In this document: piece after piece, positions 8,713 to 12,550 of the stretch
How the letters are laid out: every line of letters starts with the position of its first letter
Numbering within the stretch: the stretch's first letter is position 1
DNA from: a virus
Reading direction: 5' to 3' (one strand)
Virus genome (UHGV): UHGV-0097332
Length of the DNA stretch: 16,497 bases
Notes under the pieces: generated by a model
The model's database searches: none
What the model was told of the DNA's origin: nothing
What the model saw: the letters and a program-made list of their open reading frames with translations, nothing else
Program-made: the position numbers and the translations under genes

Positions 8713-9429
<717 letters not shown>

Positions 9430-10733: not shown

Positions 10734-11117
10734 ATGACACGCAGAACTCAGTTCAAAGGCAATTCACGTTCTCGTCGTCGTGAGCGTTTAAAGGCAAAGG
10801 CATTAGCTAACGGCGTACTGGCCCGCGAAGAAGCAATAAGTTCAGAAGTATTACACCGCCCTACTCTAAGCAGAGCGCAGATTCAGGCTAAAGGTACTCA
10901 CGAAACGCCTGATCGCATAGAAGACGCTAAGCCAATTAAGTTCATGGCACAGGACGTGATCTGGCAACAGAAAGAATACAGACGCAATCTGGAGCGAGCG
11001 GCCATTGTGTACGCGAATGAGTTTGGACATAAGCAACCAGAAACTGGTGTATGTCTTCCAAATGTAGCTCTTTACGCGGCAGGCTACCGGAAATCAAAAC
11101 AACTGACAGCGAGGTAA
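10734..11117 (+). CDS. N: N-like transcription antiterminator (arginine-rich motif; not lambda N)
   Basis: 127-aa ORF with an AGGAGG ribosome-binding site. N-terminal arginine-rich motif GNSRSRRRERLKAKA. First gene after pL/nutL. The boxB loop matches the P22 type as recalled. Confidence 0.78.
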   Translation: MTRRTQFKGNSRSRRRERLKAKALANGVLAREEAISSEVLHRPTLSRAQIQAKGTHETPDRIEDAKPIKFMAQDVIWQQKEYRRNLERAAIVYANEFGHKQPETGVCLPNVALYAAGYRKSKQLTAR

Positions 11118-11119
11118 TT

Positions 11120-11482
11120 ATGGGTCAGGAAGAAAAATATGAGCTTAAAAAGCTCATTGGAGAAGACGCCATAGAAGAAATTGCAGCATTAACAACAGCT
11201 ATAAAGAATATTAGGTATGCGCTAAATACGCTTATCTCCTCATGCGACAAAAATAGCAGGGAATTTTTGATACTTGGCGCAGCTCTAGGAATAGTTGATG
11301 CGGCAACGCTTCACCTAATTACTCATGACGATATTCTTATTGAGCCGTATGAAACATTACTGCTTGTCAGGCAAAAAATGGCTGATGCCGCAGCAAATGG
11401 AGACCTTCAACTTTACATCGACTTAAGGAAAGTATTAAGGCGAATGGTCAGAACTGAAGGAGATATCCCCCTGACAAAGTAA
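11120..11482 (+). CDS. Hypothetical early-left protein (120 aa)
   Basis: ATG 2 nt after the N stop (TAATTATGG). Acidic, helical-looking product; no family recognised. The ORF-track extension 11051-11119 overlaps N and is discounted. Confidence 0.55.
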   Translation: MGQEEKYELKKLIGEDAIEEIAALTTAIKNIRYALNTLISSCDKNSREFLILGAALGIVDAATLHLITHDDILIEPYETLLLVRQKMADAAANGDLQLYIDLRKVLRRMVRTEGDIPLTK

Positions 11483-11512
11483 GGGGGTGAAGAGGCTATT
11501 TCAGGAATAAAA

Positions 11513-12007
11513 TTAATAATTTGTCAGCGGCGGAACATATACAGGCTTAGGGGCTGGCGCTCTATACATCCGGTATTCATTCTTACAGCGAGGACATGAA
11601 TGCACAAAGAATCCATTAGATTTTATAGTAACCGTGCTTGGTTGAAGTATCGATATTTTATGTTCGCCGAAGCAATGTGCACAAAGGTTATGCTGCTGAA
11701 TAGAAGGATCGGAATGACTCTTAGGTCGATACACGACAGAACCACCTTCAGTTGTATGAAGTTCATAATTCTCAGCTTGCACAACAAACATCTTGATTTT
11801 TCTATTTTCATCTCGAAGCTTCATTGCGATCTCCTTCTCGGCCTGATAAAGGCCAGAGAGCTCCGCATTAAGCATCTGTAAGTCAGTTATTCTTTGGTGT
11901 AGATCACCAATAGCTTTAGCGATAACCGCATCGTCTCTGGTTTCTTTTATTGTCTTCAGCAGATCATAAGCCTGTTTCGCGGCAGTTATACCAGATAACA
12001 CATCCAT
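11513..12007 (-). CDS. Hypothetical coiled-coil protein with C-terminal zinc-ribbon (CxxC...CxxC), antisense to the pL operon
   Basis: 164-aa ORF on the opposite strand to all flanking early-left genes. AGAGAG ribosome-binding site upstream of the ATG. C-terminal motif CAHCFGEHK...SCPRCKNEY. AT-rich. Confidence 0.6.
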   Translation of the reverse strand: MDVLSGITAAKQAYDLLKTIKETRDDAVIAKAIGDLHQRITDLQMLNAELSGLYQAEKEIAMKLRDENRKIKMFVVQAENYELHTTEGGSVVYRPKSHSDPSIQQHNLCAHCFGEHKISILQPSTVTIKSNGFFVHSCPRCKNEYRMYRAPAPKPVYVPPLTNY

Positions 12008-12303
12008 ATAAATTACTCTCTTACTGTAGGGGTGAATAGAGTTTATCCGATTTCTCGCTGTAGGGGTACTCGAGAACCACCGAGCCTGATGTGGTTAAAA
12101 GACAGGCATACGAATAAACACTGCACTGTGTATTCATTCCAACGAGTGAATACACGGAGCAATGTCGCTCGTAACTAAACAGGAGCCGACTTGTTCTGAT
12201 TATTGGAAATCTTCTTTGCACTCCAATGTGAGGGCCTTTTTATATGCATACCAATAACGCTTCACTCGAGGCGTTTTCGTTATGTATAAATAAGGAGCAC
12301 ACC

Positions 12304-12444
12304 ATGCAATATGCCATTGCAGGGTGGCCTGTTGCTGGCTGCCCTTCCGAATCTTTACTTGAACGAATCACCCGCAAATTACGTGACGGATGGAAACGAC
12401 TCATCGACGTACTTAATCAGCCAGGAGTTCCCAAAAATGGATAA
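12304..12444 (+). CDS. cIII: CIII (FtsH/HflB inhibitor), 46 aa, ending at TAA relative to the 54-aa lambda protein
   Basis: AAGGAG ribosome-binding site 7 nt upstream. MQYAIAGWPVAGCPSESLLERITRKLRDGWKRLIDVLNQPGVPKNG matches lambda CIII residues 1-46 as recalled. The stop is TAA where lambda has a Ser codon; the out-of-frame downstream codons would still read NTYGYPD. Confidence 0.85.
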   Translation: MQYAIAGWPVAGCPSESLLERITRKLRDGWKRLIDVLNQPGVPKNG

Positions 12445-12550
12445 AACACTTATGGCTATCCAGACTAAATTCACTATCGCCACTTTTATTGGCGATGAAA
12501 AGATGTTTCGTGAAGCCGTAGAAGCCTACAGAAAATGGAGGTCAAAATGA
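12437..12550 (+). CDS. kil: Kil-like small protein (37 aa; lambda Kil is an FtsZ inhibitor)
   Basis: ATG overlaps the cIII 3' end. MDKTLMAIQTKFTIATFIGDEKMFREAVEAYRKW... resembles the N-terminus of lambda Kil as recalled; the C-terminus differs and is shorter. Confidence 0.6.
   Translation: MDKTLMAIQTKFTIATFIGDEKMFREAVEAYRKWRSK

Follow-up and report, generated by a model that had tools for sequence, protein, structure and literature searches.

Two small-RNA systems of lambdoid phages are the closest described counterparts of the DNA considered here, the non-coding stretch at positions 12008-12290 of the viral genome UHGV-0097332 (16,497 nucleotides (nt), all of which are referred to as the window), which lies between the minus-strand gene hkaP and cIII and carries a pair of direct repeats and a palindrome. 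One counterpart is the PsieB/sas cassette of phage P22, in which the sieB promoter (PsieB) is overlapped by an antisense RNA, sas, made from the opposite strand. In the P22 record BK000583, the segment homologous to the one studied here bears a 'sieB RNA start site' and a sieB promoter (29690-29720). The sequence of the antisense RNA, the sas of Ranade and Poteete (1993), is given as P22A-sas in Table 2 of a 2026 small-RNA study of P22 infection (PMC13397905); it opens at the complement of the sieB start codon, spans both copies of CUGUAGGGGU and ends past ...AAAAGACAGGCACAAUCUUUACUACCGC, its length being 105 nt in a review table as against a read cluster of 127 nt in PMC13397905. According to the review, sas made by an infecting phage causes Esc to be translated from the resident sieB mRNA in place of SieB. 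The other counterpart is the small RNA (sRNA) PreS of phage lambda, recovered as LPR1 by RNA interaction by ligation and sequencing (RIL-seq) and encoded between ral and ea10 (Silverman et al., bioRxiv 10.1101/2024.10.31.621285). PreS is an Hfq-bound RNA of ~88 nt, accompanied by a more abundant 68-nt form, with its 3' end at the terminator tL2a, and it activates translation of dnaN. It is a lytic RNA, absent in lysogens and seen within 10 min after derepression of the pL promoter (Silverman et al.). Its +1 is set by primers P810, P1103 and P969 as the G of GAGCAATGTCGCTCG, and the arm of the full deletion ends ...GAGTGAATACACG (Silverman et al.). Judged against these systems, the stretch very probably consists of two adjacent RNA modules of the lambdoid pL operon, a PsieB/sas cassette (~12003-12108) and a PreS precursor (12112-12244). 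Both are close homologs of described elements, P22 PsieB/sas in one case and lambda PreS and its terminator tL2a in the other, and most of the biology of the region is known.

The window contains a lambdoid early-left region whose orientation is reversed with respect to the lambda map. Since the cI-like (8716-9429) and N-like (10734-11117) open reading frames (ORFs) are on the plus strand, the pL transcript corresponds to this strand. Phages HK620, HK629 and HK630 are 98% identical to positions 11400-12500, and lambda matches the region as a mosaic of three pieces: lambda 34491-34396, directly upstream of sieB, equals window 12014-12108; lambda 34056-33923, running from past the ral stop to tL2a, equals 12112-12245; and lambda from 33522 onward, with the terminator tL2b and cIII, equals the window from 12246 onward. 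The two halves of the stretch are therefore ~340 base pairs (bp) apart in lambda, with orf28 and ral between them, which means that the repeats and the palindrome belong to two separate modules. In an initial annotation made from the letters alone both had been placed in one regulatory region; the regulatory character of the interval stands, the single unit does not. The same split implies that no conserved ORF runs over the repeats and the palindrome, and the ORFs 12021-12221 (minus strand) and 12032-12178 (plus strand) were rejected as genes for this reason. The view of a non-coding regulatory interval directly upstream of the antisense gene is upheld. Rfam, searched at the gathering threshold and at E up to 10, gave no family match over 12003-12244.

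The sequence features themselves are as first described. The decamer CTGTAGGGGT occurs twice, 34 nt apart from start to start, and can be extended to a 15-nt direct repeat (TCTTACTGTAGGGGT and TCTCGCTGTAGGGGT, 13/15 identical); the perfect 9-bp inverted repeat, GTGTATTCA-N10-TGAATACAC, grows to 22-nt arms (12118-12139 and 12144-12165) that are 82% complementary around a 4-nt spacer. Both are far beyond chance: with up to one mismatch the decamer has three matches in the window, compared to 0.41 expected from shuffled sequences, and the palindrome pattern has one match, compared to 0.01. In the whole lambda and P22 genomes the exact decamer is found only as the homologous pair and as a single copy in a lambda head gene. 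The recurrence in relatives that the initial annotation had asked for is borne out, in that both features are conserved in related phages, the repeats in three allelic forms.

The PreS module is the more direct of the two comparisons. The opening of PreS, GAGCAATG, falls at window position 12157, two nt past the perfect palindrome, and the homology continues through the whole RNA (Table 1). As in lambda, the RNA would end at tL2a and lies upstream of cIII, and the hairpin that precedes it is identical; however, lambda PreS follows ral, whereas the window lacks ral, orf28 and ea10 and has PreS directly after the PsieB/sas cassette. The terminator also differs from its lambda counterpart. Its stem in the window, GCACTC/GAGGGC, carries an A x G mismatch (12220) and is followed by five U, and a terminator scan calls only tL2b. 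The mismatch stems from a C-to-A change at 12220, where nearly all of ~180 related loci read GCCCTC, and means that either the PreS terminator is weakened here or the base was misread in sequencing.

In the plus-strand RNA, positions 12114-12169 fold into a stem-loop with a free energy of -24.9 kcal/mol and a z-score of -6.3. A 14-bp inner helix (12126-12139/12144-12157) is closed by the tetraloop CAAC and continued outward by an A x A mismatch, three bp, a C x A mismatch and a further three bp. PreS +1 is paired to C12126 and +3/+4 are paired to the GC at 12123-12124; in the window and in HK620 the helix can be extended to about PreS +17. The earlier proposal that the palindrome forms an RNA stem-loop in the pL transcript is supported both by the fold and, as described below, by conservation of the structure. 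Because no promoter-like sequence precedes 12157 (a consensus scan and inspection gave no -10/-35 match upstream of this position) and because PreS needs pL, the hairpin is best seen as a processing element of a PreS precursor. In the proposed mechanism a double-strand-specific endonuclease, most likely ribonuclease III (RNase III), would cut the 3' arm beside the A x A internal loop. This would free the 88-nt PreS, starting at 12157, from the pL transcript, and the hairpin would stay behind to protect the 3' end of the upstream RNA, which would be the sas-like RNA here and the ral RNA in lambda. A second cut ~20 nt downstream, past the end of the precursor helix, would yield the 68-nt form; since this form starts at about +21, a few nt past the end of the extended helix (~+17), a single-strand nuclease would be its simplest source.

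Phage RNase III substrates are ~20-bp helices with internal 1x1 loops, and a stem of ~20 bp, about two turns of double-stranded RNA, that holds PreS +1 at the end of its inner helix is what is found here. The likeness to the early sites of T7 (R1.1-type) and to the lambda N-leader and sib sites, which are known in general to be irregular stems of ~20 bp with small internal loops between functional units, extends to the proposed 3'-arm cut by an internal loop and to the hairpin staying on the upstream product. However, there is no sequence relation between the PreS hairpin and the T7 and lambda sites, and cleavage is only proposed here.

The hairpin was compared among related phages in a scan of the IMG/VR database with an anchor in the PreS seed, all loci being pooled. 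It precedes PreS behind at least four upstream contexts, namely the ral 3' end, the PsieB/sas cassette and at least two others. Of 5426 complete E. coli genomes, 2250 have BLAST matches, and these often begin at 12112 or at 12123, where the stem has its base. At seven loci the place of the hairpin is taken by an unrelated one, GCGCCT-ATAGCAGA-TTTGCGAG-TCTGCTAT-GT/GAGCAATG (the slash marks the PreS start), which has 11 bp and a tetraloop and ends two nt before PreS +1, with the +1 G paired to C, the +2 A mismatched and +3/+4 paired. In one further locus (L172) two changes perfect the outer stem (-32.5 kcal/mol), and a C-to-U variant is able to pair, as G.U, only in the plus-strand RNA. Thus the structure of the hairpin and its register to PreS are conserved, and its sequence is not. 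The octamer GAATAA(A/G)C (12112-12119) stands directly 5' of every version of the hairpin flanking PreS, the alternative class included, and forms the left edge of the module in BLAST comparisons. The slot of PreS itself, to the right of ...AAAAGACAGGCA, holds other non-coding blocks in several loci (L025, L070, L075, L092, L095; L036, L038, L054, L073, L105, L123; L029), one of which ends in a terminator, GGTCGCAATGCGGCCTTTTTTATT, while another includes GTCGACCGCCCCTTTT; a tRNA-like sequence is present at one locus. These replacement blocks may be further small RNAs made from the same position.

That RNase III is the enzyme is given a little less than an even chance. Three points count against the account of this module: the PreS 5' end is taken from read coverage and a northern band of ~88 nt and may be off by a few nt; two rare variants (GTGCATTCA and GCGTATTCA) break a pair of the inner stem; and an action of RNase III on PreS was not found described in the literature. 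The palindrome could also act as RNA in a different way, as a stabiliser of the 3' end of the upstream RNA or as a structural insulator behind which PreS can fold on its own, with RNase E or another single-strand nuclease making the PreS 5' end just 3' of the stem. The stability and conservation of the hairpin are equally compatible with such a role, many sRNAs released from operons are RNase E products, and the 68-nt form begins in an A/U-rich single-stranded stretch. However, this alternative is considered unlikely, as the +1 G of PreS is paired within the helix in both hairpin classes, the flank CACG/GAGC is not A/U-rich, and a ~20-bp helix with internal 1x1 loops fits the phage RNase III substrates known in general. 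A third reading, in which the palindrome is a DNA element, either the operator of a dimeric protein or part of a promoter dedicated to PreS, draws on the perfect 9-bp inverted repeat directly upstream of an sRNA start. It is highly improbable nonetheless: the half-sites are 19 bp apart from centre to centre, the -10/-35 match that a promoter would need is missing before 12157, lysogens lack PreS, which is seen within 10 min once pL is derepressed, an unrelated sequence of the same hairpin geometry takes the place of the palindrome in some phages, and the C-to-U variant is compatible with RNA pairing only. In the preprint, PreS is deleted and cloned from the base past the hairpin, and the origin of its 5' end is not discussed in the part of the text available (Silverman et al.).

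The module upstream of PreS resembles the P22 cassette in its promoter as well as in its antisense RNA. The mapped P22 start is the A that opens ACCCCTACAG on the sieB strand, a base that pairs with the final position of decamer copy 1. This start is said to have been located by RNase protection and the -10 hexamer to have been confirmed by mutation. The window is identical to P22 29715-29727 in the hexamer TAAACT, the 6 nt that follow and the A(+1)CCCC; HK620 has TAAAAT at an equal distance. By homology, hkaP mRNA is predicted to start at this A with a 26-nt leader, ACCCCUACAGUAAGAGAGUAAUUUAU-AUG, and we infer a weak sigma-70 promoter on the minus strand that would drive the resident hkaP in a lysogen. 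As in P22, both decamers, the -10 hexamer and the mapped start base are kept, the cassette lies downstream of N and opposite to pL, and a plus-strand RNA would overlap the beginning of the gene on the minus strand. The 17 nt between the decamers (12034-12050) are like those of P22 and lambda in the window and differ in HK620, HK629 and HK630, although the flanks are otherwise 98% identical to theirs. This segment has the look of a short patch exchanged by recombination, with the repeats as its borders, and it weakens a predicted hairpin at copy 1 in the window as compared to HK620.

The gene behind the promoter is not the one that gave the cassette its name. It fills the slot held by sieB in lambda and P22, downstream of the N-like ORF and antisense to the pL transcript as in P22, and it clusters with the HkaP family and not with the SieB family; the driven gene is thus not sieB with an internal Esc product. 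The HK620 homolog is annotated as 'putative superinfection exclusion protein'. The protein has an N-terminal coiled coil followed by a Cys4 zinc-ribbon-like motif at the C-terminus and matches phrog_1244, a family of unknown function. It has no match in Pfam, and the only match in PADLOC, a weak one to Cas10 (E 0.0032), is taken as chance. Whereas the P22 cassette drives sieB, that of the window would drive a gene without a known Esc-type product, and the term 'translational switch' may not apply to it.

On the plus strand, nt 20-111 of sas align with window 12013-12108 (90/92 identical, ~98%, plus one 4-nt indel), and the P22 segment is 93.8% identical over 96 nt by BLAST. Because the 5' 19 nt of sas fall outside the local alignment, positions 12003-12012 are set by position, that is, by the complement of the start codon. 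Since the P22 start site and the sas alignment fall on one segment, the same DNA would serve as a promoter in one direction and encode an antisense RNA in the other. The 5' part of the sas-like RNA is antisense to the start codon, the Shine-Dalgarno sequence and the 5' untranslated region (UTR) of hkaP. Were pL to transcribe the cassette in lytic growth of this phage, a sas-like antisense RNA over all three would be the product. An alternative stem, AACCAC/GTGGTT (12076-12097), overlaps the 3'-proximal hairpin, and together the two form the most conserved part of the cassette; RNA structure of the region 12008-12111 taken as a whole is not significant on either strand (z-scores 0.33 and -0.18), and the fold that finds support there is the local one around copy 2. 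On its 3' side the sas-like RNA leads directly into the PreS hairpin, in contrast to P22, which has orf28/ral there.

An IMG/VR scan, anchored on GAACCACCGAGCCTGA (window 12074-12089) in the conserved right part of the cassette, returned at least 120 loci with three alleles: allele A, with two copies of CTGTAGGGGT 34 nt apart, is present in lambda, P22, HK620 and most loci; allele B has two copies of TTTGACTGTGGAAA and allele C two copies of TGTTGGGGA (up to 13 nt), in both cases 33 nt apart. Within each allele the copies are identical (9-14 nt perfect) and vary jointly, and the 23-24 nt between them diverge. The repeat starts at the mapped +1 in allele A and, in alleles B and C, no more than two nt from the +1 that the -10 hexamer predicts. 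Five unrelated genes are found behind the cassette: those of the SieB family at 85 loci, those of the HkaP family at 22 loci (with alleles A and C), and three that encode proteins of 84, 54 and 148 amino acids, so the repeats do not track the cargo protein. Autoregulation by this protein was rejected, since the same decamers serve SieB and HkaP and HkaP occurs with two alleles. Cargo variants behind the same cassette are found in loci L021, L022, L117, L008, L075 and L097, beside the gene of the window.

In the plus-strand RNA copy 2 is presented by a hairpin with a GGGG tetraloop (Table 1). The conserved form of its 3' arm is UACA; with UACU, the stem in the window contains a single U x U mismatch. 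Allele C forms the hairpin with other stem letters, UCCU-U-GUUGUU-[GGGG]-AAUAGC-AGGA, and one of its members has an extra inserted G-C pair. In a 9-sequence alignment of alleles A and C, 95.8% of the cells are paired and three pairs are changed on both sides, compared to 39-71% paired in slid controls. The hairpin points to the plus-strand RNA, because its G.U pairs would be C x A on the other strand. This covariation is supportive, although it comes essentially from two clades. Copy 2 is not positionally antisense to the hkaP mRNA and yet is complementary to its first 10 nt, and with flanking bases to up to 17 nt. When the mRNA 5' end is matched with the part of its cognate sas-like RNA that is not antisense to it, the duplexes reach -20 to -27 kcal/mol; non-cognate combinations mostly give -6 to -18 kcal/mol and shuffled sequences about -11 kcal/mol. 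A single-copy C-to-U variant of copy 2 retains a G.U pair, which fits RNA pairing, and the sole locus with a damaged copy-2 loop (CTGTAGGTGT, in L009) has lost copy 1 too. In five loci (L012, L053, L031, L071 and L009) copy 1 and the cargo side are swapped for a hairpin, CCCCCTGACAAAATAAGGGGG, with the junction at GGGGT.

Taken together, copy 2 would be an accessible docking site, presented in a loop, to which the C-rich 5' terminus of the sense mRNA would bind, the GGGG loop and the arm UGUA pairing with mRNA ACCCCUACA. The topology is that of IS10 RNA-OUT/RNA-IN, where the 5' end of the target mRNA enters the loop of an antisense-RNA hairpin and pairing runs along the 5' arm; however, the IS10 loop lies inside a contiguous antisense region, whereas here a duplicate copy stands 34 nt from the true antisense segment, and the parallel is an analogy only. 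Its overlap with the -35 position means that copy 2 is under constraint as part of the promoter too. This docking role is put forward tentatively and is on balance doubtful, and several observations count against it and against the assignment of the cassette. The start of the promoter, the sas-like RNA and the PreS ends are all transferred from P22 and lambda. Neither the PsieB-type promoter, whose -35 is poor, nor tL2a is called by the consensus promoter and terminator scan; since it misses both a weak promoter and tL2a, the scan is of little use as a guide here. Sequence diversity is low and confined to two or three clades, and the covariation counts come from few independent events. In allele B the minimum-free-energy fold leaves copy 2 outside the same hairpin. 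Finally, the matrix of duplex energies largely restates the identity of the repeats, and the mRNA of allele A pairs with copy 2 of allele C (non-cognate) as strongly as cognate combinations do.

Two other explanations of the repeats have to be considered. The decamers may be a pair of DNA operators for one host or phage protein, bound at -34..-25 and +1..+10, that activates or represses the promoter. Their placement on either side of the -10 hexamer, at the -35 and +1 positions, is in line with this, and so are the poor -35 hexamer TACCCC, which resembles that of activator-dependent promoters, and the joint change of both copies at a spacing kept at 33-34 bp. The initial annotation had pointed to CI and Cro. 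Binding by these proteins is unlikely, since the same decamers are found in phages of different immunity (lambda, imm434, P22 and HK620) and the decamer has no copies at other lambda or P22 regulatory sites, the scanned operator regions of both phages included. More generally, because the decamers occur with differing repressors, N proteins and cargo, no phage-encoded candidate covaries with them. Among host factors, LexA (CTGT-N8-ACAG), CRP, the DnaA box, the Pho box (PhoB) and IHF were compared by eye, and none fits a consensus conserved across the alleles; the same holds for matches to sigma-28, sigma-54 and sigma-E. A NarL-like heptamer, TACCCCT, is a weak lead restricted to allele A. That the repeat opens at the RNA 5' end in all three alleles is not required of a site bound as DNA, and the compensatory changes and G.U pairs of the copy-2 stem are those expected of RNA. 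An operator pair is therefore quite unlikely, less so, however, than a reading of the repeats as what is left, without function, of a tandem duplication, or as chance similarity inside a conserved recombination linker. This last explanation is barely credible: the segment is a mosaic junction and inspection of P22 reveals faint additional likeness downstream of both copies, but three diverged alleles keep 9-14 nt of identity between the copies while the spacer of 23-24 nt diverges, and copy 2 is altered as well in L009, where copy 1 was lost.

The explanation preferred here, which combines the two modules, the processing hairpin and the docking of mRNA at copy 2, is probable when judged jointly as a whole. 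Some of its elements were not found described before: the concerted variation of the second decamer and its presentation by a hairpin, which Ranade and Poteete (1993) may already explain; the placement of the PreS 5' end inside a hairpin that is conserved yet replaceable; the pairing of the cassette with cargo genes other than sieB; and, in HK620-type phages, a cassette joined directly to PreS. A wider hypothesis joins them. The cassette would be a portable promoter with its own silencing antisense RNA, placed before unrelated and potentially suicidal lysogen genes (SieB, HkaP and at least three others); the copy-2 docking site would co-evolve with the mRNA start; and one RNase III-type cut would make both the sas-like 3' end and the PreS 5' end. 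That all of these hold at once is rather unlikely. If the processing and docking roles hold, they would explain how PreS, which boosts host DnaN for phage replication, gains its 5' end and how a sas-type antisense RNA finds its target quickly. The interchangeable cargo also makes HkaP and three other small proteins candidates for prophage exclusion or abortive infection whose genes need silencing during lytic growth of their own phage. A few hundred 'intergenic' bases in lambda-like prophages, a region present in ~40% of complete E. coli genomes, would pack a promoter, an antisense RNA, a processing hairpin and a trans-acting sRNA.

Table 1. Features in and around the non-coding stretch between hkaP and cIII of UHGV-0097332 (window coordinates).
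Feature	Position	Strand	Basis or remark
hkaP-type gene, 164 amino acids	11513-12007	-	ORF list; 98% DNA identity to HK620 hkaP
Putative homolog of P22 sas RNA, ends approximate	12003-12108	+	sas alignment; conserved in lambda, P22 and HK620
Decamer copy 1, CTGTAGGGGT	12024-12033	+	complement ACCCCUACAG would be +1..+10 of the minus-strand mRNA
Predicted hkaP mRNA start (+1, A)	12033	-	homology to the mapped P22 sieB RNA start
-10 hexamer TAAACT of the predicted PsieB-type promoter	12040-12045	-	identical to P22
Copy-2 RNA hairpin UUCUCG-C-UGUA-[GGGG]-UACU-CGAGAA, GGGG tetraloop	12052-12076	+	folds, covariation
Decamer copy 2, CTGTAGGGGT	12058-12067	+	promoter -34..-25; inside the sas-like RNA; -35 position reads TACCCC
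3'-proximal hairpin GCCUG-N14-CAGGC of the sas-like RNA	12085-12108	+	folds; invariant in lambda, P22 and HK620
Stem-loop, 20 bp, with palindrome 12128-12155 as core	12118-12165	+	fold; proposed PreS processing hairpin
PreS/LPR1 homolog, 88 nt	12157-12244	+	83/88 identical to lambda PreS, first 63 nt identical including the seed
tL2a intrinsic terminator, predicted PreS 3' end	12218-12241	+	HK620 tL2A annotation at the homologous position
tL2b terminator	12256-12275	+	terminator scan; HK620 annotation
Lambda cIII thermoregulator RNA element	12291-12349	+	Rfam RF01804, 88.5 bits

With respect to the literature and to other candidates for comparison, a study of lambda mosaicism (Martinsohn 2008) deals with strain constructions only and does not cover this region, and RalR/RalA of the Rac prophage, considered as a relative, was rejected as an unrelated locus. 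The cIII ORF downstream of the stretch (12305-12444) has only 46 amino acids owing to an early stop, matching the HK620 annotation. Further away, two neighbouring transfer RNA genes lie on the minus strand at 920-992 and 1001-1072 (Rfam, 48 and 55 bits).

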